A model generated the notes under the pieces. The model had not been told where the DNA came from and did no database searches. It saw only the letters and a list, made by a program, of their open reading frames with translations. Positions 1 through 19,433 of a stretch of DNA of 20,118 nucleotides are shown in pieces. The translations under genes were made by a program, and so were the position numbers. Source of the DNA: an uncultured archaeon (GTDB lineage: Archaea > Nanohalarchaeota > Nanosalinia > Nanosalinales > Nanosalinaceae). The first letter of the stretch is position 1. The number at the start of each line of letters is the position of its first letter. The DNA lies in NCBI GenBank assembly GCA_964421955.1, contig CAYQYU010000015.1, positions 1 through 20,118 on the forward strand, read 5' to 3'.

Positions 1-171
1 TGCGAGGGCGAGGATTTGAACCCCGGAACCCCTACGGGACAGCGCATCTGATCTTCCAGCTTCTCATCGGAGATGCTGGTATCGAAAACCTGGCGGTTTT
101 CTCAAACCGACACCTCTAACGAGGAATCGGTGTCCTCAACGCTGCGCCTTTGACCACTTGGCTACCCTCGC
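1..171 (-). tRNA. tRNA-Leu(GAG) with an 88-nt intron at 37/38 (intron 46..133)
   Basis: Reverse complement reads GCGAGGGTAGCCAAGTGGTCAAAGGCGCAGCGTT-GAG-G[intron]GCGCTGTCCCGTAGGGGTTCCGGGGTTCAAATCCTCGCCCTCGCA. The spliced product is 83 nt with a long variable arm. Relaxed BHB: TTGA pairs with intron TCAG, bulges GG|A and AT|G. Confidence 0.93.
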
Positions 172-218
172 ATATCTTGATGTGCTTGAGTCGAGAAGAC
201 TGAGTCTTCGACCCTCGC
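164..218. repeat. Duplicated tRNA 5' end (ACCCTCGC at 164-171 and 211-218) flanking an imperfect inverted copy and the hairpin AGAAGAC-TGA-GTCTTCG (194-210)
   Basis: Direct repeat and hairpins read directly from the sequence. Confidence 0.75.
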
Positions 219-246
219 GTTGACTAAAATAAGGGTGAGAAGCTAG

Positions 247-254
247 TTTTTTAA
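247..254 (-). promoter_or_regulatory. Putative TATA box (TTAAAAAA) for tRNA-Leu(GAG)
   Basis: AT-rich box 36 nt upstream of the duplicated tRNA 5' end at 218. Spacing is similar to the box upstream of tRNA-Glu. Confidence 0.45.
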
Positions 255-263
255 CTCCGTTTG

Positions 264-971
264 TTAGGCGGCGGGTTTTCCGTCTCCCGGTCCCACAGTG
301 GCGATACAGCTCTCCGGTTCTGTCATGTTGTCGTAGCCGTGGAACGAGAGATCCGCGCCTCCAAGCTGGCTCCGCAGTTTTTCCGGTGAAAGCTGGTAGG
401 CCCTGTCATCGACTATCTCGTCCCAGAGCGCCTGGCCGGTCTCTTCCTCGAACCCGTACATCCGGTCCCTGTATTCTTCCATGTTTACGCCGTCCTGTTC
501 CATCAATTCTTCAGTTTCCGGAGCAGGAGATCTTTCTATCACGAAGGCGCCGTAGATTCGAGGTGTCAGTCTTGATGCCATGGCCACCCCCTTTCGGTCA
601 GGATCTCCCTCGACGAAGATATCCTTCTGGTTCAAAGTTTCCCGTGGATGGATCGCCTCCGCTTCCATCGCGTTTTCTACGTACGGAAACAGCTGGTCCT
701 GGAAGTCCTGCCAGCATCCCGCGGCTTTCAGCAGACTCCAGGAGTTCTCTCCAGGATAGACTGTTTTTCCGCCAGTCACTCTCTGGGTTTCCGGTACCTC
801 GCCCGTGAGATTTTCTGTGGAGGCCCGGCTGGCAAAGGAAGCGCGGTAATCAGTTATGAGAAGTCCCGATTCCCGATGGGCCATGTACTCCTGGGCCAAT
901 CTCTCGTGACCCGGTTCCTCAACTTCCAGCACAGGGATACTGTCGGTTTCTTCCAGAAGTTTTTCGACCAT
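264..971 (-). CDS. Hypothetical acidic protein (235 aa)
   Basis: Long ORF with the E/D-rich composition typical of this genome, 24 bp downstream of the hydrolase on the same strand. No recognisable motif. Confidence 0.75.
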   Translation of the reverse strand: MVEKLLEETDSIPVLEVEEPGHERLAQEYMAHRESGLLITDYRASFASRASTENLTGEVPETQRVTGGKTVYPGENSWSLLKAAGCWQDFQDQLFPYVENAMEAEAIHPRETLNQKDIFVEGDPDRKGVAMASRLTPRIYGAFVIERSPAPETEELMEQDGVNMEEYRDRMYGFEEETGQALWDEIVDDRAYQLSPEKLRSQLGGADLSFHGYDNMTEPESCIATVGPGDGKPAA

Positions 972-995
972 GAATTTCCTGTTCTTTCCGCTCGT

Positions 996-1751
996 TTATT
1001 TAACTTCAGTCTCCACGAAACACTGGACCAGCTCCGCAACTTTTCCCGGTTCTTCCCAGAGCATTAAATGACCGCAGTCCAGCTCCACAAGCTCTGCGTT
1101 GAGGAGTTCGGCAGTCCCTCTGGATTTTTCCGGTGTTATTGCCCCATCTTTCCCACCCGCTACAACAAGAGAGGGTTTCTCCCAGTTTCCGAACTCTTCC
1201 CTAACATCGAACTCTTTCATGGCCTCCAGCGGGTATCTGAGCTCATCCTCACTGGCATCCAGAAGTTCCTTTTTTGACATCTGCTTGAGCTTTTCATCTT
1301 CTATCTGTCCAGCATAGTTCTTGGAGATTTTTTCAGCCCATTTCTCCCTGCTCATCGAATCCAGGTTTTCGAGGTAATAATCAAAGCTTTCGATCTCAGG
1401 CTCCGGAGTAGATGAAGGGGTCCCGAGCAGGATAAGCCCTCCTATGTTATCGTACTCTGAAGCGTAGGATAGGGCAGTCATTCCCCCGAGAGAGTGACCC
1501 ACAATCACGGGGTCTTCAAGCCCCAGTTCATCTACCAGTTCGTGGAGATGATCGGCTAGGTCAGCTATTGAGAATTTGGAAGATGTAAGACGGCTCTGGT
1601 CGTAGAAAATTCCGGGGTTTTCAAGCTCTAGATAGTTCCTGACCAGGTTCCAGGATTCTCTGGAGCCAAGCCAGCCGTGGATGAAGATTACTGCAGGGCC
1701 TTCACCCTCTTCTATCTCATGTTCATGTACCGATTCTTCGGCCTCCTTCAT
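996..1751 (-). CDS. Alpha/beta-fold hydrolase (~251 aa)
   Basis: IFIHGW oxyanion motif, GHSLGG nucleophile elbow, GGKDG acid residue and CGH catalytic His. Start trimmed to ATG 1751 because the longer ORF overlaps lplB/lplA in antisense. Confidence 0.88.
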   Translation of the reverse strand: MKEAEESVHEHEIEEGEGPAVIFIHGWLGSRESWNLVRNYLELENPGIFYDQSRLTSSKFSIADLADHLHELVDELGLEDPVIVGHSLGGMTALSYASEYDNIGGLILLGTPSSTPEPEIESFDYYLENLDSMSREKWAEKISKNYAGQIEDEKLKQMSKKELLDASEDELRYPLEAMKEFDVREEFGNWEKPSLVVAGGKDGAITPEKSRGTAELLNAELVELDCGHLMLWEEPGKVAELVQCFVETEVK

Positions 1752-1785
1752 AGAATATAAATTCTGAAATACTACTTCATATTTC

Positions 1786-2043
1786 ATGGGAAAGGCTTCT
1801 GTAAAGGTTGAAGGAGGGAAGCTGGTGAGTGTCAAAGTAGATGACGCAGAAGTTTCTGTTACTGGCGACTTCTTTATTGAGCCTCCGGAGGCGCGCAAGG
1901 AGATTGAGGCCGTACTGGAAAAGCTCGATGAAAACGTCTCAGGGGAGAAGATAACCGAGGCAGTTCTTGATGTAGATGCCGATCTTATAGGTTTCTCGGC
2001 GGAGCACGTTGCAGAAGCATTCATGGAGGCGCGGAAACAGTGA
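1786..2043 (+). CDS. lplB: Lipoate-protein ligase accessory (C-terminal) domain, stand-alone subunit
   Basis: KVEGGKLV..V.VTGDFFIEP pattern typical of the LplA C-terminal domain. GTGA overlap with the downstream catalytic subunit. Confidence 0.85.
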   Translation: MGKASVKVEGGKLVSVKVDDAEVSVTGDFFIEPPEARKEIEAVLEKLDENVSGEKITEAVLDVDADLIGFSAEHVAEAFMEARKQ

Positions 2044-2789
2044 AGTGGAGAATAATTAATGAGGGCGAATACAGCGAGGCGATGCACCACGCGATCGACC
2101 AGGTGCTTCTCGAAAAACTGGATGAGGGAGAGATTTCTCCAACTTTGAGGTTCTGGTACCGGCCGCACACCTCGATTCCGATGGGTCGTTTCCAGGCATA
2201 TCATGATGAGGTCGAGCATGACTACATCGAGGAAAACGATATCGAGGTCGTCAGGAGGATCACCGGGGGTGGTGCGATGTTCTCAGAGCCGGGAAACGTT
2301 ATCACGTACTCTATCTACATCCCGCGTGACCAGGTAAACCCGGATATCGAGGAGAGCTACCAGGAGCTAGATGGATTTGCGGTCAGGGCCCTGGAAGAGC
2401 TCGGGGTTGACGTGGAATACAGGCCCCTGAACGATATCGAACACGAGGACGGAAAGATCGGCGGGGCGGCCCAGATCAGGAAGGATAACGCAGTACTTCA
2501 CCACACCATGATGAGCTATGATCTAAATACCCGCAGGATGCTCAAGGCCCTGAGGATTGGGAAAAAGAAAGTCTCGGACAAGGCTATAAAGTCCGCAGAG
2601 AAACGGGTCTCCAGGATATCAGACCATATTGACCGTTCGCGTGAAGGAGTGGTCCAGTCCCTGATAGAAAGTTTTGTCGAAGAACATGGAGAAGCGGAAG
2701 AAGGCCAGCTAACCGATGAGGAGCTTGAAGAAGCCCGGGAGCTTGCCGAGAGAAAGTTTTCCAGCGAAGATTGGAACAGGAAGCTGTAG
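2040..2789 (+). CDS. lplA: Lipoate-protein ligase A, catalytic subunit
   Basis: PTLRFW, GRFQ, VVRRITGGGAMF, NDI and KIGGAAQ motifs of the BPL/LplA/LipB family. Confidence 0.93.
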   Translation: MKWRIINEGEYSEAMHHAIDQVLLEKLDEGEISPTLRFWYRPHTSIPMGRFQAYHDEVEHDYIEENDIEVVRRITGGGAMFSEPGNVITYSIYIPRDQVNPDIEESYQELDGFAVRALEELGVDVEYRPLNDIEHEDGKIGGAAQIRKDNAVLHHTMMSYDLNTRRMLKALRIGKKKVSDKAIKSAEKRVSRISDHIDRSREGVVQSLIESFVEEHGEAEEGQLTDEELEEARELAERKFSSEDWNRKL

Positions 2790-2790
2790 T

Positions 2791-3309
2791 TCAGTAATCA
2801 GGATTCTTCTCTTCCACGTTTTCTAGATAGTTCTCGTGTCGCGCCATCAGGAAGAACAGGTCGCTCAAACGGTTGATGTAGGTCAGGACCTCCGGCCGAA
2901 TATATTTCTCGTTTCTCAACGCCGCTATTCTCCTTTCAGCCCTCCGGGTCACTGAACGGGCTAAGTGTAGGAACGAGGCTACTTCTACGCCGCCCGCAAT
3001 TATGAAATTCCGCTGTGGAGGTATTTCCTTCTGGATTTCGTCGCAGCGTTCCTCAAGCCGTTCTACATCCTCGGCTGTAATTTTATGCTCGGAGTTCATG
3101 TCGGCGAGCTCGGCCTGGAGAATGTGTAGCTCGTTCTGTATTTCCTCTATTGCGTCCCGCTTCCTGTCCGACTTTGAGGCTACGACTCCGAGAAGAGAGT
3201 TGAGTTCGTCCACGGTCCCGTATGCTTCAAGTCTGTCCGAGTCCTTGGGTACGCTTTCGCCCGATCCGAGATCGGTTTCACCCCTGTCTCCTCGGCCAGT
3301 ATAGACCAT
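2791..3309 (-). CDS. pduO: ATP:cob(I)alamin adenosyltransferase, PduO type
   Basis: YTGRGDRGET, AYGTVDELNS, ARSVTRRAER and YINRLSDLFF motifs. Confidence 0.93.
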   Translation of the reverse strand: MVYTGRGDRGETDLGSGESVPKDSDRLEAYGTVDELNSLLGVVASKSDRKRDAIEEIQNELHILQAELADMNSEHKITAEDVERLEERCDEIQKEIPPQRNFIIAGGVEVASFLHLARSVTRRAERRIAALRNEKYIRPEVLTYINRLSDLFFLMARHENYLENVEEKNPDY

Positions 3310-3399
3310 ACAGTTGTTCAGTATCCGAAATTTTAATTAGTGATGTCTGCTCGAACTGTCGATACTTATGAAAGCTTGATTGCATTAAATCAAAGCTAG

Positions 3400-4521
3400 A
3401 TGAAGCTATTCGAGTGCGAGGCCAAGGAGCTGCTGCGCGGCTACGGCCTTGATATCCCGGGAGTGAACGGCGAAGAGTTCGTCGTGAAGGCACAGGTACT
3501 GATGAAGAACAGGAAACAGCATGGCGGCATAGAATTCGCCTCCAGCCTTGAGGAAGCGGAGGAAGTCGCTGGAGATATGCGGTCAGGAAAAGTGAACGGC
3601 CACGATGTCGAGAAGGTTATAATTGAGGAAAAGATCGATTACTCGGAAGAGTACTACGTCGCGCTGATATACGATACTGACGTTAGAGCCCCGGTGATGC
3701 TGTTCTCAGGCGACGGTGGAACTGGTATAGAAGATCGAGAGGTCGAGAAGCTGGTTCTGGAGAACCTGGAGCAGTGGAGAATCAGGCAGTTCCTGAAGCA
3801 GAACGGAGTTGACAGTAAAGAGCTGAACTCTCTCGGACCAGTCCTGGAGAAAGCCGCCCGGTGCTTCTTTGAGGAGGACGCCAGAATGCTGGAGATAAAC
3901 CCTCTGGTGAAGAATGAGAACGGTTACATGGTGCTCGATGCGATGATCGATCTTGAGGAGGACGCATCCTACCGCCACAGCTGGAGCTATCCTGAAAGGT
4001 CGGAGTTCGGCCGGGAAAAGACCGAAAGAGAGAGGATGGCTGAAAAGATTGACGAGAATGACCACCAGGGAATTGCGGGCAAATACACCGAGCTTGACGG
4101 GGATATTGCGATGATGCTCGCAGGCGGCGGCGCCTCCCTGGCCAACATGGACGCTTTGATGTCCTACGGGGGTAGACCTGCGAACTACACCGAGTACGGC
4201 GGGAACCCGCCGACAGAGAAAGTTTACAGGTTGTCAAAGATAGTTCTCGGGAAGCCAGGCCTGGAAGGGTGCTGGCACGTGGGCGGAACCGCGAACAACA
4301 CGGATATCTACAGGACGATGAAAGGCTTCTGCCAGGCCCTTGAAGAAATTGAACCCGATTACCCGATCGTGGTCAGGAGGGATGGTCCGAACGCGGATAG
4401 AGCATTCGAGCTCCTGAGGGAGACCAGGGAGAAGCTCGGCCTCGACATGAAACTTTTCCGGAATGATACCCCGATGACTCAAACTGCCAGAGTGCTAACG
4501 AGGATGATTGAGGATGATTGA
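3400..4521 (+). CDS. ATP-citrate lyase beta-like / citryl-CoA synthetase large subunit (ATP-grasp plus citrate-binding domain)
   Basis: KLFECEAKELL, VVKAQV and LEINPL (SCS-beta/ATP-grasp), plus ACL-type AGGGAS, ANYTEYGGNP, GGTANNTD and VRRDGPN motifs. Confidence 0.88.
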   Translation: MKLFECEAKELLRGYGLDIPGVNGEEFVVKAQVLMKNRKQHGGIEFASSLEEAEEVAGDMRSGKVNGHDVEKVIIEEKIDYSEEYYVALIYDTDVRAPVMLFSGDGGTGIEDREVEKLVLENLEQWRIRQFLKQNGVDSKELNSLGPVLEKAARCFFEEDARMLEINPLVKNENGYMVLDAMIDLEEDASYRHSWSYPERSEFGREKTERERMAEKIDENDHQGIAGKYTELDGDIAMMLAGGGASLANMDALMSYGGRPANYTEYGGNPPTEKVYRLSKIVLGKPGLEGCWHVGGTANNTDIYRTMKGFCQALEEIEPDYPIVVRRDGPNADRAFELLRETREKLGLDMKLFRNDTPMTQTARVLTRMIEDD

Positions 4522-5179
4522 GGCCAGAACACCGGTTTTTGACATAGGCGACACTTTGCTGCCGGATGACCGGCTGATGAACGAGGCCGTCGAGCAGGTC
4601 CTGATGGAACAGGGGTATTCACAGGAGGATGTTCCGAAGTTCCCGATCTACAGCTACAATATATTTAAACTGCAGGAGGTGCAGGACTTCCTGATGTCGA
4701 ACAACCTTAAAGCGAACCCTGCAGAGATTGTGGAGGCTTACAAGAAAAATGCCCGGGAATTCTTCGCGGCAAGCGATATTCCAGAGGTTCTCATCCGGTG
4801 TAACTCGGAGATAGGGACCATCGGCTTCATCAGCGACAACTCGGTCGAGGAAAAAGAGTTCATAGAAGAGGTCTTGAGACAGCACTACATCGACTATGAG
4901 GGCTACGTGGTCTCGGAGACGGTCGGGCACGAGAAACCTTCTCAGGAAATATTCCGTGCCTTCCTCGATATAAGGGACGAGAGGGGAGAAAACTTCGCCT
5001 ACTTTGGAAACAACGCCCGGGTTGACCAGGGCTGCGAAAAGGTCGGCATGGAGTTTGTATGGGTGAAGCAGTTCAACACATTCGGCTCCAGCTGGGACGG
5101 CAAAAAGATCGAGGAACTCAGCTTTGAAAACGTGAAGGAACAGGTGATGGAGGAGAAGCATGAGCATACTCATAGATGA
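4514..5179 (+). CDS. HAD-superfamily hydrolase
   Basis: Motif I FDIGDTL, motif II ISD, motif [12 protein letters not shown] and motif IV-like [12 protein letters not shown] 4514 follows GAGG and overlaps the upstream stop. Confidence 0.82.
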
Positions 5180-6050
5180 GGACACTCGCGTCCTTGTGCA
5201 GGGAATAACAGGTCGAGAGGCCTCGGAGAAAGTTCCTGAGATGATGGAGTACGGGACAGAGATAGTAGCGGGAGTAACACCCGGGAAAGGCGGGCAGGAG
5301 GTCTCGGGCGTCCCGGTCTACGACACCGTTGAAGAGGCTATTGAAGAACACCCTGAGATTAATGCATCGGTAGTCTACGTTCCGAACTTTGCCGCGAAAG
5401 ACGCCGCATTTGAGGCACTGGAAAACGATATACCGCTGATCAATATCGTAACGGAGAGAATACCTGTGAAGGACGCATGGAAGATAAAGGAAAAGGCGGA
5501 TGAGAAGGATGCCCGGGTCGTGGGCCCGACCTCAGTTGGGATAATATCTCCCGGGAAATCAAAGCTCGGGCCAATAGGAGGGAACGAGCCCGGAAAAGTC
5601 TACGAGCCGGGCAAAGTCGGTATAGTTTCGAAAAGCGGCGGAATGACAACCGAGACCGCGTGGGTTGTTAGGCAGGCGGGTTACGGAGTTTCCACAGCCA
5701 CGGGTCTTGGAGGCGACGTAATCGCTGGCACAACATTTGAAGATGCACTGGAACTTTTCGAGGAGGACGATCAGACGGAGGTGGTCGTGATGTTCGGAGA
5801 ACTCGGAGGTACCTACGAAGAGAGAGCCGCCGAGGCTCTTGAGCGCGGAGATTTCACGAAACCTCTCGTAGCTTTCATCGCAGGAAAGTTCACAGAAGAA
5901 CTTCCGGAGAAGAAGTACGGTCACGCCGGAGCAATCATCCGCGGGAACAGAGGTACTCCTTCAGGAAAAGTTAAAGCTCTCCAGGACGCAGGAGCTCATG
6001 TGGTAGACGTGCATCACGAGATAGGCGAGAAGCTGGAGGAGGTTCTCTAG
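5160..6050 (+). CDS. Succinyl-CoA synthetase alpha-like subunit (citryl-CoA synthetase small subunit)
   Basis: VLVQGITG CoA-binding motif, [18 protein letters not shown] and phospho-His motif GHAGA. GGAGG ribosome-binding site upstream. Confidence 0.92.
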
Positions 6051-6073
6051 TGGCGACGGCTTCATCGAGGAGA

Positions 6074-6499
6074 ATGGTGAGCGAGTCGGAGGAGGACCCG
6101 ATAGTGAGCCGCGCCTTTATAGATTCTAAAGAAGTAAACGGGGAGACAGTTCCCGGCCTGGACCCGTTTGTCGCGTATGAACATGCCTCTCGAAGAGAGG
6201 AGAGAGGAGAGGATCTGGAGTATGAGGTCACAGAAAATGGAGGTATAAGAATCTTCTACGGTCCAGACTACCTGGATGACGATCCAACCCAGGAAAGCTG
6301 GAGTTTCAGTATAAAGATTGAAGTCATGGATGATCAAGACAATGATTTCGACAGTAAGTATTCTTACGTTGAAGTTCGTTACAATCCAAAGATTGAGGAT
6401 CATAATGATGGAGACATGATATGGGAGAATATCGTTGACACGCTTGAAGACAGGACTGTCAGGTATCACAGGGAGATAAAGGGTGGACTCCATGACTGA
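6074..6499 (+). CDS. Hypothetical acidic protein (~141 aa)
   Basis: ORF fills the gap between the SCS-alpha-like gene and the lyase. ATG 6074 follows GAGGAG (alternative GTG at 6050). Visibly more AT-rich than its neighbours. Confidence 0.7.
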   Translation: MVSESEEDPIVSRAFIDSKEVNGETVPGLDPFVAYEHASRREERGEDLEYEVTENGGIRIFYGPDYLDDDPTQESWSFSIKIEVMDDQDNDFDSKYSYVEVRYNPKIEDHNDGDMIWENIVDTLEDRTVRYHREIKGGLHD

Positions 6500-7193
6500 C
6501 TGGGAGACATCGATCTCTTCAAGCGGAGAGGACGCAGTAGTTAGAGGCCGACCTCTTGAAGAAGTCATGGAGATGGAGTTCGCGGAAGCGATCTGGCTCT
6601 TACTGAAGGGCGAAGAACCCTCGGAGAAGGAGTCGGAGATGTTCAACACGATACTTTCGATTTCAATCGACCACGGCGTGGGCAACCCCTCAACGGTCGC
6701 GGCAAGAACTGTCCAGAGCGGCGGAAACTCGATGAATTCCAGCGTTGCGGCAGGAATCCTTGCGCTAGGTGACAAACACGGAGGCGCGATTGAAGACGCG
6801 ATGGAGATACTTCAGTCGGAAAAAGATGCGGAAACGATAGTTGAAGAATATCTTGAAAGTGGTGAGAAAATTCCTGGTCTCGGTCACAAGGTATATGATG
6901 AAGAGGATCCGCGTGCCGGGAAGATTTTCTCGAAGGCAGGAGAGCTCGGCCTTGCAGGAGACGCGGTGGAGAAGATGAAGTCGGTGGCCGAGGAGTTCGC
7001 GGAGAGAAAGGTTGATCTAGTGATCAACGTCGACGGAGCTACCGCCGCGGTCATGAGTGATCTCGGATGGGATTACAGGCTCGGGAAGGGTGTATTCATA
7101 GTCGCCAGGGCACCAGGTCTAGTGGCACACGTCCGTGAAGAGATGGAAAGGGAAGATTTCCGCCGCGATAACGGTGAATACACGGGAGAATAA
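6492..7193 (+). CDS. ccl: Citryl-CoA lyase (short citrate-synthase-fold protein)
   Basis: W.TSIS N-terminus, DHG..NPS..AAR, HGGA, IPGLGHK..DPRA and NVDG motifs. About 233 aa, lacking the large citrate synthase insertions. ATG 6492 follows GGTGG. Confidence 0.88.
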   Translation: MTDWETSISSSGEDAVVRGRPLEEVMEMEFAEAIWLLLKGEEPSEKESEMFNTILSISIDHGVGNPSTVAARTVQSGGNSMNSSVAAGILALGDKHGGAIEDAMEILQSEKDAETIVEEYLESGEKIPGLGHKVYDEEDPRAGKIFSKAGELGLAGDAVEKMKSVAEEFAERKVDLVINVDGATAAVMSDLGWDYRLGKGVFIVARAPGLVAHVREEMEREDFRRDNGEYTGE

Positions 7194-7195
7194 TT

Positions 7196-7693: not shown

Positions 7694-7753
7694 GAAAACA
7701 ATTTGGTAGGCAGGAATTTAATCTTTAGGATAGCTGGGTTGCAGAAAAAGCTT

Positions 7754-11719: not shown

Positions 11720-11889
11720 TTTCAGAAGTTTGCGGCTACCGGGATCCGAACGAATGGCAGACTCGAAGAACTTTCTTCTGCGATCAAGAAAACTCGAAGA
11801 GTTTTCGATCGATCCCCTTTCTGGAAGGCATTCTCTGAATGCCTTATGATGATCAAACTTTCAGAAGTTTGCGGCTACCGGGATCCGAA
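11720..11889. repeat. Perfect 31-bp direct repeat (11720-11750 and 11859-11889) containing a degenerate tRNA-Glu 3' end, with a hairpin cluster between and after the copies
   Basis: TTTCAGAAGTTTGCGGCTACCGGGATCCGAA occurs twice. Its last 20 nt match 11973-11992 at 17/20 positions. Confidence 0.92.
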
Positions 11890-11972
11890 ACTCTAGCGAG
11901 TTTCTGCTCCTCACAACTCAGAGAGTTGCTTAGTTGCAAGCAAATCCCGGTTCCTAGCATACGTGAAACGGA

Positions 11973-12047
11973 TGCGGCTGCCGGGATTTGAACCCGGGTC
12001 TTCGGCTCGAAAGGCCGAGATGATTGGCCAGGCTACACTACAGCCGC
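11973..12047 (-). tRNA. tRNA-Glu(TTC), intronless
   Basis: GCGGCTGTAGTGTAGCCTGGCCAATCATCTCGGCCT-TTC-GAGCCGAAGACCCGGGTTCAAATCCCGGCAGCCGCA folds into a cloverleaf of 75 nt. Confidence 0.96.
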
Positions 12048-12073
12048 GCTAGAGAAACTACAGAGAAAGGAGG

Positions 12074-12081
12074 ATAATTAA
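12074..12081 (-). promoter_or_regulatory. Putative TATA box (TTAATTAT) for tRNA-Glu
   Basis: AT box 34 nt upstream of the tRNA 5' end, preceded by a purine-rich BRE-like AAAAGTG. Confidence 0.5.
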
Positions 12082-12086
12082 CACTT

Positions 12087-13022
12087 TTAAGCATGTCCGG
12101 GCTCTAGATAGAGAATGTCTTCCATGGTTCTTATGGTGCCCGAAAGAGTTTCTTCTCCCTCGTCAAGAGGGTGGCTGCTCTTGACTATTATGTTGTCCTT
12201 GCTGTCCGAGAGCGTGTAGAGGTAGCTGCCCTTGATATTCCTCTGGAACTTGAGTTCGCCGCTTACCCTGGCTTTCTGGCCCTCCATGCCCCACGAAACG
12301 TCTGAAGGCGCTATAGAGCTCTTTTTGAGTCCCTGGGAGGGTCTGTGTGATCGGGTGCTCTCTATCTTCTGCTCAAGCTCCTCTATCTTCTGCTCGAGTT
12401 CCTGCAGGTCGATGTCTGACAGCCTCTCCTTGCTGGCCTTCTTTTCAAGGTCCTTTCTCAGGTCCTCCAGATCGTTCTCAAGGCTGATTATGTTCTGCTT
12501 GAGCGACTTCTTTTCGTCCTCTATCCGGGAGTTAAGGGACTGTATCTCGCCGCTGATATCCTCCATTTTTGCGCCGAGTTCGTCATGGTTGTCGACCACC
12601 TCTTCCGTGTTCTCTAGACGGGATTCAAGGTTACTGTGGTTGTCCTGGAGTTCCGAGATATGCTGGTCTATCATGCTCTCCATGTTCTCCCTGAGCTCGG
12701 AGGTTCTCTGTTCAATCAGCTGGTCAATCTTGTTGTGCTCGTGTCGGGTAACTTCTTCGAGCTCGTCGCCGACCTCGTCCACTATCTTTTCCCTGATGCG
12801 GTTCACAGCCTCCATGAATCTTTCATGATCCTGTTCGACGTAGTTCCGGAAGGCTCTCTCCCATTCACTCTTCATTTCCTCCAGAGAATCTTCTATGGCG
12901 CTGTTAACACGGTTCTTTATCTTGGATGTTTCCTCTTCCTGCAGATCCTTTAGCTCGTTCTCCAGGTCTACTTCGTCAGAAGCTCCCTCGTGAGAGTCTT
13001 CTTCCAGGAAATCGTCACTCAT
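12087..13022 (-). CDS. Acidic coiled-coil protein with a possible C-terminal OB-fold domain (~311 aa)
   Basis: Long heptad-rich E/K/L region. The C-terminal GQKARVSGELK...YLYTLSDSKDNIIV..LSGTI pattern resembles an OB fold. Start trimmed to ATG 13022 to avoid overlapping the HIT gene. Confidence 0.78.
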   Translation of the reverse strand: MSDDFLEEDSHEGASDEVDLENELKDLQEEETSKIKNRVNSAIEDSLEEMKSEWERAFRNYVEQDHERFMEAVNRIREKIVDEVGDELEEVTRHEHNKIDQLIEQRTSELRENMESMIDQHISELQDNHSNLESRLENTEEVVDNHDELGAKMEDISGEIQSLNSRIEDEKKSLKQNIISLENDLEDLRKDLEKKASKERLSDIDLQELEQKIEELEQKIESTRSHRPSQGLKKSSIAPSDVSWGMEGQKARVSGELKFQRNIKGSYLYTLSDSKDNIIVKSSHPLDEGEETLSGTIRTMEDILYLEPGHA

Positions 13023-13106
13023 ACAGATGATTGTAGAGAGCTTCAATAAAAGCTTGACGAATGTCTGACCGAAAAAGATTAGAGCCTTTGAGACAGTCCC
13101 TATTGT

Positions 13107-13511
13107 ATGGTTGATGACTGTGTTTTCTGCAGCATAATAAAGGGAGATATACCCTCGCATACTGTATACGAGAATGATGATGTCGTGGCATTCCTAGACG
13201 CCAACCCGGTCTCGAAAGGCCATACGCTGGTAGTTCCGAAGAAACATGTTGAGACCGTGCATGAGGCAGGGGAGATGGACTACATGTGGGAAGGTCTCGT
13301 CAAAGTTGCCAACGCCATCAGGGATGCGTTTGAACCGGAGGGCCTGAACATCAACCAGAACAACGGCGAGAAAGCAGGGCAGGAGGTCCTCCACATGCAC
13401 TTCCACGTAACTCCCCGGTACACCGGAGACGAGATCAATATCGACTACGACCGTTCCGAGCTGGAAGGTGGAGAAAAGATAGCGGGACAGATTTCGGCGG
13501 AGATAACTTAA
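13107..13511 (+). CDS. HIT-family nucleotide hydrolase
   Basis: DCVFCSI, AFLDANPVSKGHTLVVPKKH and GQEVLHMHFHV histidine triad. Confidence 0.95.
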   Translation: MVDDCVFCSIIKGDIPSHTVYENDDVVAFLDANPVSKGHTLVVPKKHVETVHEAGEMDYMWEGLVKVANAIRDAFEPEGLNINQNNGEKAGQEVLHMHFHVTPRYTGDEINIDYDRSELEGGEKIAGQISAEIT

Positions 13512-13534
13512 TACCGGAGCGATAAAAGGGTTCC

Positions 13535-14356
13535 ATGGCTTTCCTCGAAAACCTCTTTTTCGTGTTTATTGCTGGTCTGATAACAGACCTGGCGACCGGA
13601 ATCGGTGCCCTGCCGTTCTTCTTCAAGACAGAGTTCAGCGACCGCTGGCTTGTCGGACTATGGGGGCTCGCCTCCGGTATAATGTTCTTCGCCTCGATCT
13701 TTGGATTGATACCGGAAGGGCTTAACGCTGGCGCGGCCTACACCTTCCTGGGCTCAAAGTACCTGGCTGTCGGGCTGGGTCTCGTGACCGGAGTGCTACT
13801 GGTCGAGGCTGGAAGCCGTTTCCTTGAGGAGCGTGAGATTGATCCCGGGACTTTCGAGAAGGCCACCTTCAAGAGGATGATATTGATCCTCGGCGTTTTG
13901 ACAGTCCACAGTTTTCCCGAGGGTGTCTCGATCGGTGTCTCGTTCGCCGAGATGGGGCTGGGGAACGGTATACCTCTACTCGGCTTTGCGGTTCCACCTC
14001 TAGCCATAATAATGACCATAGCAATCTCGGTCCACAACATTCCAGAGGGCGTCGCCATCTCGATACCTTTCAGGTCCATGGGCATGAGCAAGTGGAGGAT
14101 GCTTGGAGCAACAATTTTCTCCAGTTTGCCGCAGCCTATAGGAGCCGTTATAGCATTTGTGTTTGTGAGGCAGGCACGCCAGTTCATGGCCGCGGGCTTC
14201 GGCTTTGCGGCGGGGGCAATGATTTACCTGGTGCTGACAGAGTTCGTTGACGAGGCCAGAGAACAGGGCGAAAACCTTGACGACTGGTGGCGAACGTTTG
14301 CGGCCGGAGTCCTGGGCGGGCTGTTAATAATGGCTCCGTTACTAATATTCCTTTGA
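13535..14356 (+). CDS. ZIP-family (ZupT/GufA-like) divalent metal transporter
   Basis: Multiple TM helices, HSFPEG and HNIPEG metal-site motifs, FAAGAMIY. Confidence 0.93.
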   Translation: MAFLENLFFVFIAGLITDLATGIGALPFFFKTEFSDRWLVGLWGLASGIMFFASIFGLIPEGLNAGAAYTFLGSKYLAVGLGLVTGVLLVEAGSRFLEEREIDPGTFEKATFKRMILILGVLTVHSFPEGVSIGVSFAEMGLGNGIPLLGFAVPPLAIIMTIAISVHNIPEGVAISIPFRSMGMSKWRMLGATIFSSLPQPIGAVIAFVFVRQARQFMAAGFGFAAGAMIYLVLTEFVDEAREQGENLDDWWRTFAAGVLGGLLIMAPLLIFL

Positions 14357-14742
14357 TGTCAATGCAGGAGTTAGCGGGAAATCTGATATTTGAAGACGGG
14401 AAGGTACTGTTGCTCTACCGTGAGGATGAAGAGTACTGGGAGGTGCCTGGTGGAAAAGTAGAGGATACAGAGTCGCCCACCGAGGCCGCTGTTAGAGAGG
14501 CCAAGGAAGAGATCGGTGTAGAGGTCAAGCTGGAGAAACCGTTCTTCTCGGGTGAATTCCAGCACTCGGGAGAAATATTCCTCTGGCACGGCTATATCTC
14601 CGAGATAGTTGATGGAGAGCCCGAACTCCAGGAAGGAAAGTTTGAGAAGATGGAATGGTTTGAGGGCTCCAGACTCGATGAGCTGGAGCTGGCGCCGAAC
14701 CTTGAGATGATTCTGCCGGCGCTTAGAAGGGTGCTCAGGTAA
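14356..14742 (+). CDS. NUDIX hydrolase
   Basis: Nudix box [26 protein letters not shown] overlaps the ZIP stop (TGATG). Confidence 0.92.
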
Positions 14743-14935
14743 TCTTGTGCTCGCCGATTTCGTCAATCGTGTCGACGTGTGTCAGGAAGATTGTCCTGCA
14801 GCAGTACTTCTCTAGCCCAAGATCGTCGAGAACTTCTCCCGGATCTTCCTCATCTTCTTCTACACGTTCCTGGAACTCTTCCCATTTGTCTCCGATGACT
14901 TTGCCGCATGAAAGACATCTAACTGGTATCTGCAT
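14735..14935 (-). CDS. rpoN: DNA-directed RNA polymerase subunit N (Rpo10)
   Basis: [12 protein letters not shown]...[13 protein letters not shown]. Confidence 0.97.
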
Positions 14936-14950
14936 GTTTTGATTGCACCT

Positions 14951-15352
14951 TTAACGGTAGGACTTCTGCTGTTTGTGTCTCGCCCCTTTGGACGACTGGG
15001 ATGGTTTTCTCGTTTCTGTACGTCTCGGATCTTCGACAAGCATGTTCCTGTCGTACTCACGGAACTCTCGCTCGAGTTCATCGTCATCCGTGTATTCGAC
15101 GAGTCCTCGGGCGATAGCCATTCTTATGGCTTCTGCCTGTCCCTGGACCCCGCCGCCCTCGACGTTGACCTTGATCTCAAGGTCATCTACTATTTCTGCT
15201 CCAGCAATTGTGAGGGGCTCCTTGATGCGCTGCCGTGACATCTCTGGTAGCGTGTGGAGAGGCCGGGAGTTAATCCTCAGCGTCCCTTCTCCTTCCTTAA
15301 CTGATGCTCGTGCCTTCGCGGTCTTTCTCTTTCCTGTGGAGTGTACTGCCAT
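14951..15352 (-). CDS. rps9: 30S ribosomal protein uS9
   Basis: TGKRKTAKARA, GGGVQGQAEA, DPRR.E.RK and QKSYR C-terminus. Confidence 0.97.
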   Translation of the reverse strand: MAVHSTGKRKTAKARASVKEGEGTLRINSRPLHTLPEMSRQRIKEPLTIAGAEIVDDLEIKVNVEGGGVQGQAEAIRMAIARGLVEYTDDDELEREFREYDRNMLVEDPRRTETRKPSQSSKGARHKQQKSYR

Positions 15353-15780
15353 CAGTTTCGATCACCTCTTGGAGTCCAGCCTATATACCTTGAGACTTCG
15401 CCAAGCTTTACATAGTTCCTGTTCTTAAGATCGTCGCCTTCTTTTACTTCTACTTCCTCGAAGTCTTCGAACTCGTCGGGAATACCGATATATGTTTTCA
15501 CGCGGTCAAATGCGTCTCCGCCTTCAGAGGTCTTGTACGGGAGCATTCCTCTCACGGTTCTCTTCAGGATTCTCTCTGGAGACTTCGGGAAGTACGGTCC
15601 GTCGTGTCTTGAACCTCTCTCCTTTCTCTGCCGGTACTCGGCCTTGACTTCCTCTTCATCCCCGGAGATAACAGCATCTTCAGAATTAACCACTCTTACC
15701 TCTTCACCGTCTCTGGCATTTCTAGCGATTTCTGAAGCGAGTCTTCCGAGAACCCTGTTTTCAGCATTTATTACTTTCAT
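15352..15780 (-). CDS. rpl13: 50S ribosomal protein uL13
   Basis: VINAENRVLGRLAS, GPYFPKSPERILKRTVRGMLP. Confidence 0.97.
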   Translation of the reverse strand: MKVINAENRVLGRLASEIARNARDGEEVRVVNSEDAVISGDEEEVKAEYRQRKERGSRHDGPYFPKSPERILKRTVRGMLPYKTSEGGDAFDRVKTYIGIPDEFEDFEEVEVKEGDDLKNRNYVKLGEVSRYIGWTPRGDRN

Positions 15781-15834
15781 TCAAAACTCACCTGAGTTTC
15801 TGCATGTCCAGAAAATCTCTGATTTTCTGTCATT
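15777..15834. repeat. 53-bp double-hairpin insert flanked by a TCATT/AATGA duplication at the rpl18e-rpl13 junction
   Basis: TCATT at 15777-15781 and 15830-15834. Hairpins at 15782-15801 and 15809-15829. Confidence 0.75.
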
Positions 15835-16180
15835 TTACAATTCTCACCTCTGAACCTTCTGGATTTTCCTCAACAAGCTCTTCGATAAACTGGAAGCTAC
15901 CGTCCTCTTCAATTGCCTTTCTGGCGCTCCTCGATGCCTTGAACGCGGCAACATCGACCTTCTTCGTCAGACGGCCTGATCCAAGAACTTTTCCCGGAAC
16001 AACTACGGTCTCCCCGTCCTCCGCTACACGTTCGATATCGGAGAGATTGACTTCCGGCCGTTTTCTATTAACTTTTCCAAGATTTTCTCTAACAACACTC
16101 CAGACTGGTGCGTCCTGCTTTTCCAGGAGCTCCAGCGTCTCGACAAGTACGGGATTGGTTGGGTCTGCTTTCTTATCCAT
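15830..16180 (-). CDS. rpl18e: 50S ribosomal protein eL18
   Basis: TNP, VNLSDI, VVVPGKVLGSG and VAAFKAS. GAGGTG ribosome-binding site. Confidence 0.96.
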   Translation of the reverse strand: MDKKADPTNPVLVETLELLEKQDAPVWSVVRENLGKVNRKRPEVNLSDIERVAEDGETVVVPGKVLGSGRLTKKVDVAAFKASRSARKAIEEDGSFQFIEELVEENPEGSEVRIVK

Positions 16181-16284
16181 TTGATAGCACCTCGCGGCTG
16201 TGGTATGCCCGGAGGCTTTCCACTTAAGCAGATCTATTGATCTGCGGCCACTTTGCGGCTGTAGTCATCCAAACGAAGTTAAGA

Positions 16285-16292
16285 TTTATAAA
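16285..16292 (-). promoter_or_regulatory. TATA box (TTTATAAA), likely for rpl18e-rpl13-rps9-rpoN
   Basis: Consensus archaeal TATA box just downstream of tRNA-Leu(TAA) and upstream of rpl18e. Confidence 0.55.
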
Positions 16293-16300
16293 ACGAACTT

Positions 16301-16527
16301 TGCCGGGGCGGAGATTTGAACTCCGGAACCCCTGCGGGACAGGATTTCCAGCTCGAAAACCGCTCACACGATTTTCTCGGTCCTCGTTCTCCTGTGGAGA
16401 ACTTGAGGATCTTAAGTCCTGCGCCTCTGGCCCTCCATGGGCTTGGCAATCGGATCTTTCTCCGCCAGGAGATTGTCCGATAACAAACTCCAAACTCGCT
16501 GGAGTTTGGCCACTTGGCTACCCCGGC
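16301..16527 (-). tRNA. tRNA-Leu(TAA) with two introns: D-loop (16427..16505, 79 nt) and anticodon loop 37/38 (~16346..16410, 65 nt)
   Basis: Removing both segments gives the 83-nt GCCGGGGTAGCCAAGTGGCCAAAGGCGCAGGACT-TAA-GATCCTGTCCCGCAGGGGTTCCGGAGTTCAAATCTCCGCCCCGGCA. The D-loop intron has helix GGCC/GGCC, bulges AA|A and AG|A, and intron stem CTCCA/TGGAG. It lies at the conserved position upstream of rpl18e. Confidence 0.92.
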
Positions 16528-16597
16528 TCTTTGTACATAGCTACGACTATTTTCGTATTTTGTCCCCAAGTTAAAAATAGAGGTAGAATGATTCGGT

Positions 16598-17011
16598 TTA
16601 CAAATGGTAGCCAGGTCCGGTGGCGTCCTCCGCTATTCTTCCGAGCTCTTCCAGATCGAGTTCATCGTTTACGCCGTAGGGACAGTCTATTATCTCGTCC
16701 TGGAAATAGTCTAAGCCAGTTAGTTTCGCATCCTGGAGTTCGTAGTATGCTGCCTCAAGATCAGCTGCAACATCAGTTCCCAGTGCTGCCCGGTCGTGGG
16801 CGTCCAGCGAACTCGGTACCTGGCCTAGACCCATATGGTCTTCAAGTTCTTCTTCGTGTCTTACAAGCATTATGAATGTCTCATAGAGCTCCCTATCTGT
16901 TACCTCTCCATTACTTCTGTGTTCCTGGACTTTTGTCAAGAATGTGTCGATTGCGTGCTCTGCGTCTTCTTTCAGGGTTTCAACTTCGCCCTGTCTTATA
17001 TCTTGAGCCAT
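16598..17011 (-). CDS. Hypothetical acidic protein (137 aa)
   Basis: Acidic ORF filling the rpoD-tRNA-Leu gap, with a TTAAAAA box about 30 nt upstream. No recognisable motif. Confidence 0.7.
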   Translation of the reverse strand: MAQDIRQGEVETLKEDAEHAIDTFLTKVQEHRSNGEVTDRELYETFIMLVRHEEELEDHMGLGQVPSSLDAHDRAALGTDVAADLEAAYYELQDAKLTGLDYFQDEIIDCPYGVNDELDLEELGRIAEDATGPGYHL

Positions 17012-17057
17012 AGAAGTATATACTGGAGCGCAATGTTTTTTAATCTTCCTGTAGTAG

Positions 17058-17630
17058 CTACAGTGACTCTACAGCTTCCTCGAACTCGTCAAGTTCCGCC
17101 TTAACTTCCTGGATTCCGGCCTCGACAAGTTCTTCGTTGGTATACCCGGAGATGGATTCGATCCGGAATAGGTACTCTCCTTCGTCAACTTTCTCATATC
17201 CAACTGTTCCGCCCTGATGCTTTGCGTGTTCTGAACCGTGTCCGAGCCTGGCTTCTGCTTCAAACTCGAGGCCTTGGTCTTCCTTCAGGTCAACTATGAC
17301 TGTTTCCGGGTTGACCGGTTCCGCTTCGTCGTTGTCAGCCTTCAGGTCCTCGGCAAGGACTGTGCCCGGACCCTCCTGCTTTAATGCGATATGGACAGTA
17401 TCTTCCCCGTCAACATTCTCTGGGACGGTGAAGGGTATCTGACCTACGCGGTTGGCGAGAACTTCATCGAAAAGACCTGACTGGTTCTTCGTTATATCAA
17501 GGTGCTGCACCGCGAGCGTTGGAACCTTAGTCATTATTGCCCGCCTTAAAGTGTTGGCCACCGCAGCGTTCGCATCTGTCAGCCTCAGTTTTAGCACGTC
17601 GTCTCCTTCTTCCTCTATCTCTACATTCAT
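17058..17630 (-). CDS. rpoD: DNA-directed RNA polymerase subunit D (Rpo3), short form
   Basis: [52 protein letters not shown] and FRIESISG. Located after rps11. Confidence 0.96.
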
Positions 17631-18007
17631 ACTCTTCGACCTCTTTTTCCGCCCTTCGACCTGACGCCATCATGTGGCTCAGGGGTAACGTCCTCAATAT
17701 TTCCTACATCGAGTCCTGACCTGGAGATTGCACGAATTGCGGGCTGCGCTCCTTTACCGGGCATCTTCTGCTTCTGTCCCCCGGGAGCTCTCACCTGGAT
17801 GTCAACCTCGTCAATTCCTTTCTCCATCGCTTCCTCGGTCGCCTGTTTTGCGGCCTTCATTGCAGGGAAAGGTTCTCCCTGGAGCCGTCCCTTGTCAGTC
17901 ACCATTCCTGAAGAAATCCGTGAAATGGTCTCGGCTCCCGTAGCGTCTGTTATGTGGATGATAGTATTGTTGAAACTCGAGTAGATGTTAACAATTCCCT
18001 TTGCCAT
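17627..18007 (-). CDS. rps11: 30S ribosomal protein uS11
   Basis: [51 protein letters not shown]. Confidence 0.97.
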
Positions 18008-18657
18008 TATTCTTCTTCCTCCTCGGCATCTTCTTCGTTATTTTCGTCTTCATTCTCTTCTGGTTCCGCTTCTTCCTCTTCGTTCTCTAGCTCTTCTTCA
18101 GTCTCTTCCGGCTCTTCTACTCCTTCATCCTCCTTTCGATCTTCAGCTTCGTCTGTTTCGGTTTCTGGTTTCTCCTCTTTATCCTCTTCTGGTTCAGGCT
18201 CTGGAATTATTACTTCGATCTCTTTCTCCTCTTCCTGTGTCAGCATGTACCCGGGAACCGTGACGCGCTGGCCGTCAACGTAGACGTGGCCGTGAACAAC
18301 GGTCTGGCGCGCCTCTGTGACAGTATCGGTGTAGCCGCGCCTGTTGACAGCGGTCTGGAGCCTCCTGTCAAGGAAGTCTGTAACGTTTAGTGATAGTATT
18401 TCTTCGAGTTCCGCGTCATCTCTTACCAGCCCGAGCCGGTTCGCCTTGTCGATAAGTTCTCGCTGCTCCTGCTCGTTTTCGGAAGCGACCAGCTTTCTCG
18501 CCTCGCGCCTGAGATCGCGGAGCTGGCTCTGTGCCTTGTAAACTTCTCTCTTGTTCTTCAGGCCGTAGTCCTCGATCAATTTGTCCTCCCTGTTGATCCT
18601 CTCCTGGTTCCAGCCCTCGTTGGGCGTCTCGTACTGCTTTTTGAGCTTCTTTACCAT
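18007..18657 (-). CDS. rps4: 30S ribosomal protein uS4 with a long acidic C-terminal tail
   Basis: [44 protein letters not shown]. Start set at ATG 18657. Confidence 0.96.
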
Positions 18658-18797
18658 TGAACTTTCACGTGAAGTATCGGTCACTCGAAAACTCGAGAGT
18701 TTTCTGCGGTTGCAGAAGACTCAAAGAGTCTTCGAACGCGGGAACGCGTTACGCTATCGCTCCAGCGTCCTTTCTTTCTTTGATTTTAGCAATCATT
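18655..18797. repeat. 139-bp hairpin-rich insert between rps13 and rps4, bounded by CATT/AATG
   Basis: Hairpins at 18686-18705 and 18714-18734 plus smaller palindromes. CATT at 18655-18658 and 18794-18797. Confidence 0.7.
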
Positions 18798-18798
18798 C

Positions 18799-19287
18799 TT
18801 ATTCCTCCTCGTCTTCCTCGCTGCTTTCTGCAGCCTCTTCTCTCAGCCGGGCTCTTGAAACTCCAACCTTTGAACCTGACCTGAAAGATGATTTTGTCTT
18901 CTGACCTCTCACAGGCAGGCCGATCTGGTGTCTCCATCCCCGGTAAGTACCGGTTTCCTTCAGGCGTCTAATATCGAACTCTTCCTTCAGCTCGAGATCC
19001 GAGCCGATTAGGTGATCGTCCTCACCGGTTTCACGATCCTTCCTTCTATTTCTCAGCCATTCTGGGACATCGGCTTCTTCCGGATTCCTTATTATCTCTT
19101 CTATCTCGTTGATCTGCTCTTCCTCAAGTTCACCTATACGTGTCTCTTCGTCAACATCGATAACCTTTGAGATCGCGTGACCGTACATATCGCCGACTCC
19201 CTGCAGTGAAGTTATAGCCTTGCCTACAGGCTGTGTGCCGTCGATGTCGGTTCGAGCGATTCTTACAATCTCTTTTACTTCAGACAT
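18799..19287 (-). CDS. rps13: 30S ribosomal protein uS13
   Basis: IVRIARTDIDG, PEWLRNRRKD.ETG, TYRGWRH..GLPVRGQKTKS. Confidence 0.97.
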   Translation of the reverse strand: MSEVKEIVRIARTDIDGTQPVGKAITSLQGVGDMYGHAISKVIDVDEETRIGELEEEQINEIEEIIRNPEEADVPEWLRNRRKDRETGEDDHLIGSDLELKEEFDIRRLKETGTYRGWRHQIGLPVRGQKTKSSFRSGSKVGVSRARLREEAAESSEEDEEE

Positions 19288-19315
19288 GGTCGTAACTCAC
19301 AAGTTCCCTGCAAAT

Positions 19316-19323
19316 TTTATAAA
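19316..19323 (-). promoter_or_regulatory. TATA box (TTTATAAA) for the rps13-rps4-rps11-rpoD operon
   Basis: Consensus TATA box about 30-36 nt upstream of the rps13 ATG. Confidence 0.65.
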
Positions 19324-19336
19324 GGGTGGACAGCGT

Positions 19337-19433
19337 CTATCGCTCATCCGTCTTCTTAATCAGTCGAAAATCAGAGATTTTCTCGGTGACCAGAAGACGG
19401 GTTGAGCTATCGCTCATCCGTCTTCTTAATCAG
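19337..19433. repeat. Perfect 27-bp direct repeat of the parvulin gene 3' end with an inverted copy and a hairpin in the 43-bp spacer
   Basis: CTATCGCTCATCCGTCTTCTTAATCAG at 19337-19363 and 19407-19433. Confidence 0.93.

Follow-up and report, generated by a model that had tools for sequence, protein, structure and literature searches.

Why does the end of a gene occur twice, with a hairpin lodged between the two copies? Several loci raise this question on a contig of 20,118 bp (C15; GenBank CAYQYU010000015.1), which was analyzed in its entirety and is here called the window. It belongs to an uncultured archaeon of the Nanosalinaceae (genome G000; 922,649 bp or 0.92 Mb in 27 contigs, 98.8% complete). 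An initial annotation had proposed a recurrent layout for these loci (a target copy, its imperfect inverted copy, a hairpin ending in TTCG, a second target copy) that leaves the host gene intact. Our analysis shows lineage-specific micro-insertions (26–130 nt) located exactly at gene boundaries, i.e., at the 5′ and 3′ termini of tRNA genes, at stop codons and at overlapping stop/start junctions. The inserts are built from short perfect hairpins of few module families and are bracketed by a 5–31-nt duplication of the boundary. Because the boundary sequence is duplicated, both flanking functions survive, and the host genes are indeed intact.

Duplicated gene ends and their empty sites

At the 3′ end of the parvulin gene, the 27-bp duplication described in the initial annotation is exact and has the accompanying inverted copy and hairpin:

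19407..19433, minus strand: target copy 1, the last 8 codons and TAG stop of the parvulin (peptidyl-prolyl isomerase) gene (exact 27-nt repeat; Pfam Rotamase at 19407–19754)
19386..19406, minus strand: imperfect inverted copy of target copy 1 (local alignment against shuffled sequence, p = 0.024)
19364..19385, minus strand: family hairpin (core 19366–19382), its TTCG end abutting target copy 2
19337..19363, minus strand: target copy 2, followed by the S13 promoter region, which directly follows the stop in empty-site genomes

The insert is 43 nt long and the copies are identical at 27/27 positions. Pairing between the inverted copy and copy 1 yields an extended hairpin whose loop contains the stop codon (fold z −3.4), and near-identical copies (18–23 nt) of the family hairpin occur elsewhere in the genome. 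A candidate third copy of the parvulin end near 18754 was rejected as chance, being only a 9-mer from a block of which many 9–11-mers recur genome-wide.

The nearest genomes, which represent other genera within one family, share only ~66–76% DNA identity with G000. Four of the seven related parvulin loci (G016, G010, G015 and a metagenome contig, NAR1) are empty, the stop codon being followed directly by the S13 promoter stretch. Among the three filled loci, the layout is complete in G006, whose second copy is 20/27 identical (our own count), and G023 and G007 have kept the inverted copy with a decayed hairpin. Since the insertion is common to three genera, it is old, and the mismatches of the inverted copy may simply reflect this age instead of the error-prone synthesis initially proposed; the identity of the two copies in the window despite that age implies later homogenisation.

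The stop-spanning stem is formed by a different 5-mer in each of the window, G023 and G006, fully complementary in all three cases (covariation), and shorter stop-spanning hairpins are present in G015 and NAR1, both without the insert. These patterns favor an explanation in which the hairpins are selected functional RNAs (splicing-endonuclease intron cores, 3′-end or processing stem-loops, or anti-Shine-Dalgarno hairpins keeping translational coupling), while the duplications would have arisen by ordinary local tandem duplication and been preserved for rescuing signals that overlap. That several hairpin regions in the window fold better than shuffled sequence points the same way. We consider this explanation rather improbable as an account of the whole layout, for reasons given below, but it is compatible with, and not opposed to, an insertional origin.

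A two-round insertion had been proposed at the 3′ end of tRNA-Glu:

11973..12047, minus strand: tRNA-Glu(TTC) (ARAGORN, Rfam); its last 16 nt (11973–11988) are target copy 1, ending at the discriminator
11886..11972, minus strand: round-1 insert of 87 nt, with an inverted T-arm copy at 11941–11956 (p = 0.021), two small hairpins and a family hairpin at 11886–11906
11859..11889, minus strand: copy of a 31-nt repeat nearer the tRNA, containing the diverged second tRNA-end copy (11870–11885) and half of a trailer hairpin
11751..11858, minus strand: round-2 insert of 108 nt, with module M4 at 11846–11871, a hairpin at 11826–11844 and family hairpins at 11786–11808 and 11763–11780
11720..11750, minus strand: distal copy of the 31-nt repeat, an exact repeat of 11859–11889

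Both rounds are visible as direct copies, the 31-nt copies being exact and the tRNA end (11973–11988) matching its second copy at 14/16 positions. The inverted copy is present in the round-1 insert, but none was detected against shuffled sequence in round 2 (p = 0.79). The M4 pieces of the round-2 insert recur near-identically (23–26 nt) at other loci.

Three further loci in the window carry hairpins at gene boundaries:

164..218, plus strand: tRNA-Leu(GAG) 5′ end, with the target copy at 164–171, a 39-nt insert with a family hairpin at 193–211, and a second 8-nt copy at 211–218
15777..15850, minus strand: L18e/L13 junction, a 49-nt spacer with a hairpin at 15809–15829 directly after the L18e stop
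15781–15802, minus strand: second L18e/L13 hairpin, holding the L13 Shine-Dalgarno sequence in its loop and 3′ arm
18685..18735, no strand assigned: two family hairpins in opposite orientation (18685–18706 and 18713–18735) within the 141-nt S13/S4 spacer

At tRNA-Leu(GAG) the proposed 8-bp copies and the hairpin are present, but the 8-mer recurs at 13151, the duplication is not significant by itself and no significant inverted copy accompanies it. The same geometry, with 14- and 11-nt copies, was found at the 5′ ends of tRNA-Tyr and tRNA-Ser on other contigs. The 5-bp duplications proposed at L18e/L13 (15777–15781/15830–15834) and within tRNA-Leu(TAA) (16341–16345/16406–16410) are likewise chance-sized when taken alone, but comparison with relatives shows that the intervening sequences at both loci are lineage-specific insertions. 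The L18e/L13 spacer measures 0–20 nt in 5/5 relatives vs 49 nt in the window, and one assembled read contig (run X3) has 6 nt in place of 15776–15828. The L18e/L13 hairpins are bracketed by a degenerate 17–20-nt duplication that runs from the Shine-Dalgarno sequence to ATGA. The S13/S4 spacer is similarly expanded (141 nt vs 3–26 nt in six relatives).

Outside the window, a gene pair on contig C4 carries an 81-nt insert (M3, a hairpin and M4) bracketed by a 17-nt duplication that spans the downstream gene's Shine-Dalgarno sequence to the upstream stop. In 9/11 relatives these genes lie 0–25 nt apart without insert or duplication. The empty-site comparison that the initial annotation had suggested thus identifies true insertions with target duplication at the parvulin gene and the C4 pair, and uninterrupted L18e/L13 and S13/S4 junctions in related genera.

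Genome-wide layout and orientation

Exact direct repeats of at least 13 nt lying within 250 nt of each other numbered 64 in the genome and 4 in a Markov control. One long, repetitive open reading frame (ORF) on contig C6 (C6:8179–9270; internal repeats of 123 and 135 nt), which is unrelated to the hairpin elements, contributes roughly a third of the 64. When this ORF and a tandem array of contig C8 are set aside, the longest repeats (at least 17 nt) are mostly located at tRNA termini.

The TTCG end of each hairpin was said to face the second target copy. We sought the sequence adjoining each hairpin within 220 nt on the hairpin's other side and counted scores of at least 10, which were reached in 20/89 tests on the TTCG side, in 0/55 mirrored tests and in 0/44 tests of unoriented hairpins; in coding DNA, 4/142 tests scored at least 10 and none at least 12. 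The orientation rule is therefore supported. Seven of the 20 positive tests represent one tandem array (C8:1–330; 111-nt period) situated at the contig start beside tRNA-like sequence, its unit consisting of a tRNA-3′-end-like piece, two GAAC..GTTC hairpins and another hairpin. The other positive tests correspond to 13 loci, comprising 11 tRNA termini (both 3′ and 5′) and two protein-gene ends (parvulin and the C4 pair), at which a hairpin insert of 26–130 nt is bracketed by 10–31-nt direct copies of the gene end. Duplication length ranged from 8 to 31 nt over 15 events (5–31 nt including the 5-nt cases), in line with the variable length originally reported. Other genera show the layout too: G016 has it at tRNA-Leu and tRNA-Glu, and G023 at each end of its tRNA-Leu.

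Could chance similarity or faulty assembly produce such a pattern? The 8- and 5-nt duplications are of a size that chance yields, and the 31-nt repeat at tRNA-Glu equals the word length (31) of the Logan contigs from runs X1, X2 and X3 that served for read-level comparison. This repeat region is unbridged among the X1 pieces listed, and an X2 contig joins across the repeat while omitting 139 nt, possibly an artefact of 31-letter words, which we did not count as an empty site. On the other side stand the excess of repeats over the control, the lack of any positive mirrored test, the presence of the layout in independently assembled genomes of other genera, and an X1 contig that covers 16301–20000 with zero differences from the window and spans the parvulin duplication unchanged (X1 is probably the source sample). 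Chance or artefact is, therefore, barely credible; the layout is real and beyond chance.

The position of the duplications is as regular as their orientation. In tRNA-Glu, -Lys, -Ser, -Arg, -Met and -Ile, copy 1 stops at the discriminator or a single base beyond it; in tRNA-Tyr and tRNA-Leu it begins at position +1, and in parvulin its last bases are the stop codon. Identity blocks that end at a tRNA terminus are a sign of integrase attachment (att) sites, and blocks reaching from T-arm to discriminator base, as found here, were reportedly described by Williams in 2002 as typical of att sites in tRNA genes. The duplications might accordingly be attL/attR remnants of larger elements that an integrase inserted into tRNA genes and that have since been mostly deleted. 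Tyrosine recombinases are encoded in the genome, and on contig C2 (C2:58569–59032) a 106-aa tyrosine-recombinase C-terminal fragment lies 123 nt downstream of an uninterrupted tRNA-Leu(TAG), a pair that looks like a classical integrated-element remnant. Furthermore, a study of Caldiarchaeum proposes that mobile-element integration, linked to tRNA gene disruption, can give rise to introns and fragments of tRNAs (PMC3293823). The inserts nevertheless measure only 26–130 nt and consist of hairpin modules, with no integrase or cargo between the copies; tRNA 5′ ends and the ends of protein genes (parvulin, the C4 pair, L18e/L13) show this layout as well, and the blocks differ widely in length. We thus regard an origin as att remnants as very unlikely.

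Hairpin modules shared with operon spacers and tRNA introns

The hairpins at these loci belong to an oriented family with the consensus A-GAARAYY-loop-RRTYTTC-GA. Among perfect hairpins genome-wide, those with a 5′ arm starting in GAA form the most abundant class, and 94/165 GAA..TTC hairpins with a stem of at least 6 lie in the non-coding 9% of the genome (as delimited by our own codon-usage gene caller), where they are enriched ~10-fold or more. Among 53 distinct oriented non-coding copies, the base at −1 of the stem is A in 45 and the base at +2 after the stem is A in 30; the base at +1 is G in 53/53 because the flanking G served to orient the copies. Beyond these flank bases, conservation outside the stem is absent from the 53 copies. 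At least 12 different arm sequences were found among the copies, with perfect pairing throughout. The pattern GAARAYY-N2-6-RRTYTTCG occurs 27 times in G000 and is present in 36/41 genomes of the order, where the reversed control pattern occurs 0–3 times per genome.

Operon spacers provide a second setting for the family. A GAA..TTC hairpin lies 1–14 nt past the stop codon and 27–35 nt ahead of the next start in 11/14 spacers examined, and in five of these a second hairpin, read by eye, holds the Shine-Dalgarno sequence (GGTGA) in its loop and 3′ arm. Examples are located at:

window 15781–15802
G000 C3:64949
G000 C3:59617
G000 C12:22364
G000 C9:4724
G000 C5:63425

Such Shine-Dalgarno-enclosing hairpins may represent an anti-Shine-Dalgarno structure that rebuilds translational coupling, and they suggest that insertions in spacers are tolerated for this reason. 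Their regular placement is a further point in favor of selection for RNA structure.

The third setting is the tRNA introns. With introns allowed, ARAGORN predicted 40 tRNA genes in G000, 29 of them with introns of 42–190 nt, and in most tRNA genes the introns are made of the modules that also form the gene-end inserts. A sense-oriented GAA..TTCG hairpin is present in 14/29 introns and ends 8–12 nt before the 3′ splice site in eight of the 14, a fixed distance that again favors a function for the folded RNA. Inspection by eye resolves the introns into a small number of partner modules, namely M1, M2, M3 and M4 (the trailer module). The two tRNA-Leu genes of the window illustrate this organization:

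1..171, minus strand: tRNA-Leu(GAG) (Rfam, ARAGORN; fold z −5.2), with an 88-nt intron (~45–132) of three hairpins, the middle one a family hairpin (82–103)
16301..16527, minus strand: tRNA-Leu(TAA), with exons at 16506–16527, 16411–16426 and 16301–16345
16427–16505, minus strand: D-loop intervening sequence of tRNA-Leu(TAA), 79 nt
16346–16410, minus strand: anticodon-side intervening sequence of tRNA-Leu(TAA), 65 nt, with module M1 (16379–16408) and a hairpin (16352–16379)

Once both intervening sequences are removed, tRNA-Leu(TAA) aligns to the uninterrupted gene of G007; they are absent from that gene and from the syntenic tRNA-Leu of NAR1, while G016 holds a homologous M1 intron at the same anticodon-side place in tRNA-Leu. 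Of the window's three tRNA genes, ARAGORN found only one when introns were disallowed; when they were allowed, it wrongly assigned tRNA-Leu(TAA) to tRNA-Glu. Standard tRNA counts for such genomes will come out too low. The expected splicing motif, a 4–5-bp helix and 3-nt bulge adjoining the anticodon stem, was found in 11/24 folded anticodon arms; in the minimum-energy folds of the window's two tRNA-Leu arms it was not seen. One match to the splicing endonuclease (tRNA_int_endo) was found in G000, in a 194-aa open frame.

These interruptions resemble the bulge-helix-bulge (BHB) tRNA introns of archaea, for which intron transposition has been described in Thermoproteales. The same hairpin modules build the G000 introns, and related introns occur in different tRNAs. 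The difference is that in G000 the modules also occupy tRNA termini and protein-gene ends, where they are flanked by long direct target copies. The interruptions of both window tRNA-Leu genes lie inside the tRNA gene and their removal restores a canonical tRNA, which is not the case for the inserts at parvulin, the tRNA-Glu 3′ flank and L18e/L13. Splicing of gene-end inserts was checked by hand and rejected at the parvulin, tRNA-Lys, tRNA-Ser and C4 junctions; because the flanks there are identical, not complementary, a central helix or BHB would not form. Conversely, inspection by eye of the boundaries of canonical introns gave no general direct repeat at splice sites except the 5-nt case of tRNA-Leu(TAA).

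The trailer module (a hairpin plus GATCATCAT) also occurs in reverse orientation directly upstream of the 5′ ends of tRNA-Asn, -Gly, -Thr and -Arg (G000 C12:20977–21260 and C17:2198–2230), and at tRNA-Arg(CCT) it sits between a TATA-like box and the tRNA start. We set aside a C/D-box or kink-turn reading of the trailer module and the family hairpin, since by eye the boxes are on opposite strands and tandem G-A geometry is found in a minority of copies.

Candidate origins of the inserts and related systems

Where does the inserted sequence come from? The initial annotation derived the filler from the target itself and placed an inverted target copy at each locus. Measured against shuffled inserts, an inverted copy was significant (p ≤ 0.05) in 5/15 events: parvulin (0.024), two tRNA-Glu genes (0.021 and 0.006), tRNA-Lys (0.05) and tRNA-Ser (0.004). 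It fell short of significance in the M3/M4 inserts, the second tRNA-Glu round and the tRNA-Leu(GAG) 5′ end. Genome-wide, the expected excess of direct copies beside hairpins is thus present (13 loci), but an inverted copy between them accompanies only this minority. Nor is the insert mainly target filler, since the insert bodies are modules conserved across the order and shared with the tRNA introns. Inserts also recur intact. The round-1 tRNA-Glu insert is identical (87/87) to the insert behind tRNA-Glu(CTC) on contig C2, and the inserts behind both tRNA-Ser genes are identical over 51/51 nt. A 39/39 copy of the tRNA-Arg(TCG) intron module lies inside the tRNA-Arg(CCT) 3′ insert, and the hairpin of the tRNA-Lys 3′ insert is 20/21 identical to one in the same gene's intron. 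Selection on RNA structure leaves several of these features unexplained, namely identical inserts at different genes, the orientation rule, and the second tRNA-end copies, which have no evident function and are 100% identical at several loci.

Variable duplication length, inverted copies in a third of events, reuse of modules and the absence of the mobilising-enzyme families searched for lead us to favor, tentatively and with slightly less than even confidence, templated insertion by template switching that reuses existing hairpin modules. The inserts would arise during replication or break repair, when a nascent 3′ end leaves its template at a gene boundary. This end would sometimes snap back on itself, giving the inverted target copy, and an existing hairpin module would then be copied from elsewhere in the genome. 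Re-annealing by microhomology upstream of the point of departure would yield the second target copy (the TTCGA end of the hairpin matches the T-loop sequence TTCRA). Cassettes, once formed, could spread by gene conversion among genes with the same end, and either selection acting on the folded RNA or correction through template switching may keep the stems perfect; the process would require no enzyme encoded by the element. By eye, microhomology is present at the junctions of two tRNA-Glu genes, tRNA-Ser(GGA) and tRNA-Arg(CCT), where the stretch homologous to the tRNA continues into TTC(G) of the hairpin. The mechanism of the initial annotation (nick, fold-back and template switch) remains a hypothesis, one compatible with the data.

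Template-switch mutations as modelled elsewhere (the four-point model, snap-back in alternative end joining) also combine direct and inverted flank copies, new perfect stems and variable length, and one report describes how hairpins and compensatory changes can originate in a single step (PMC8794818). Known cases are sporadic, whereas the inserts studied here recur at gene boundaries across a whole archaeal order, with a conserved hairpin family and an orientation rule.

Several observations weigh against template switching. A significant inverted copy is lacking from 10/15 events. The tRNA-Glu inserts are identical yet their second target copies differ, so that one must further assume a particular end point for a gene-conversion tract. 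An 85-nt composite (M3, a hairpin and M4) recurs as a unit at unrelated targets in the manner of a mobile element. The conserved unpaired flanks and presence in 36/41 genomes are more in keeping with a motif under recognition or selection than with a by-product. In most events, the first copy meets the insert no more than one base away from the mature tRNA end or stop codon, which random template switching does not predict. Hairpin flanks, order-wide spread, recurring composites and exact gene-end coincidence together leave room for a mobile element or a selected RNA function.

The first of these possibilities would involve a non-autonomous mobile family, either derived from tRNA introns or akin to miniature inverted-repeat transposable elements (MITEs) or repetitive extragenic palindromes (REPs), mobilised in trans by a dedicated, as yet unrecognised enzyme with specificity for the A-GAA...TTC-GA hairpin and staggered cleavage. 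Candidates for this role would be an unknown nuclease or any of the four tyrosine recombinases (Phage_integrase-family matches) of G000. The conserved, oriented hairpin with fixed unpaired flanks, its order-wide distribution with controls near zero, its strict orientation toward the second copy, the 85-nt composites and the 100%-identical inserts at two loci all agree with such a family. As in REPs and bacterial interspersed mosaic elements (BIMEs), short palindromic units occur in dozens per genome and are enriched in intergenic or operon-spacer DNA, with a conserved base beside the stem. However, the duplication is long and variable, without the fixed value of MITEs or the absence of duplication otherwise found in such elements; stems vary among copies while remaining perfectly paired; some inserts contain target-derived inverted copies; and the units also reside inside tRNA introns. 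No terminal inverted repeats were seen in the inserts by eye, without a dedicated test (the repeat scan was limited to arms within 300 nt). Searches of G000 gave zero matches to Y1_Tnp (PF01797, the RAYT/Y1 type), TnpB (PF07282), Cas1 and RVT_1 (reverse transcriptase), with DDE families not searched. The contrast with insertion sequences and MITEs drawn in the initial annotation therefore stands as far as the hallmarks looked for and transposase families searched are concerned, and we consider a mobile family unlikely, though a serious contender.

The same searches led us to reject diversity-generating retroelements, CRISPR (clustered regularly interspaced short palindromic repeats) or casposon activity, and IS200/IS605 elements. 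Adenine-specific repeat differences, the mark of diversity-generating retroelements, are lacking from the identical parvulin copies. Cas1-type integration, as in the duplication of CRISPR repeats or the casposon insertion reported at a tRNA 3′ end (PMC5137440), shares a long target duplication beside the tRNA 3′ end, but duplication length is not fixed here. A viral origin was also rejected, the M1 pattern (the single pattern tried) having 0 matches in viral contigs.

The same modules thus exist in three states: as introns, as inserts at tRNA termini with 100%-identical duplications, and as protein-gene inserts with empty sites in sister genera. They form a concrete, datable set of events in small genomes from which the chemistry of insertion (junctions, microhomology, donor loci) can be worked out, and the gene-end inserts may show how interruptions of tRNA genes arise. 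A 2026 preprint describes the arrival route of archaeal tRNA introns as open, and a survey documents short direct repeats in the vicinity of introns of every class. In the literature searched for descriptions of nanohaloarchaeal introns and palindromes (supplements not covered), nothing describing this layout was found. One could speculate, though we think it a long shot, that a transposase-free, self-perpetuating hairpin insertion by template switching in nanohaloarchaea is the route by which archaeal tRNA introns arrive. If so, the process would lay down a strand complementary to the target, such that insertions next to the anticodon fold into a spliceable BHB and persist as introns, while duplication of the target allows those at gene ends to survive.

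The window as a whole codes for an archaeal ribosomal-protein/RNA-polymerase cluster along with other genes, and many of its proteins are very acidic. The minus-strand cluster comprises parvulin, S13, S4, S11, RpoD, tRNA-Leu, L18e, L13, S9 and RpoN. At 3400–7193, genes resemble a split ATP-citrate-lyase/citryl-CoA system (an ATP-grasp protein with citrate-binding domain, a CoA-ligase alpha-like protein and a citrate-synthase C-terminal domain); a HAD hydrolase gene and a small ORF break up this set.

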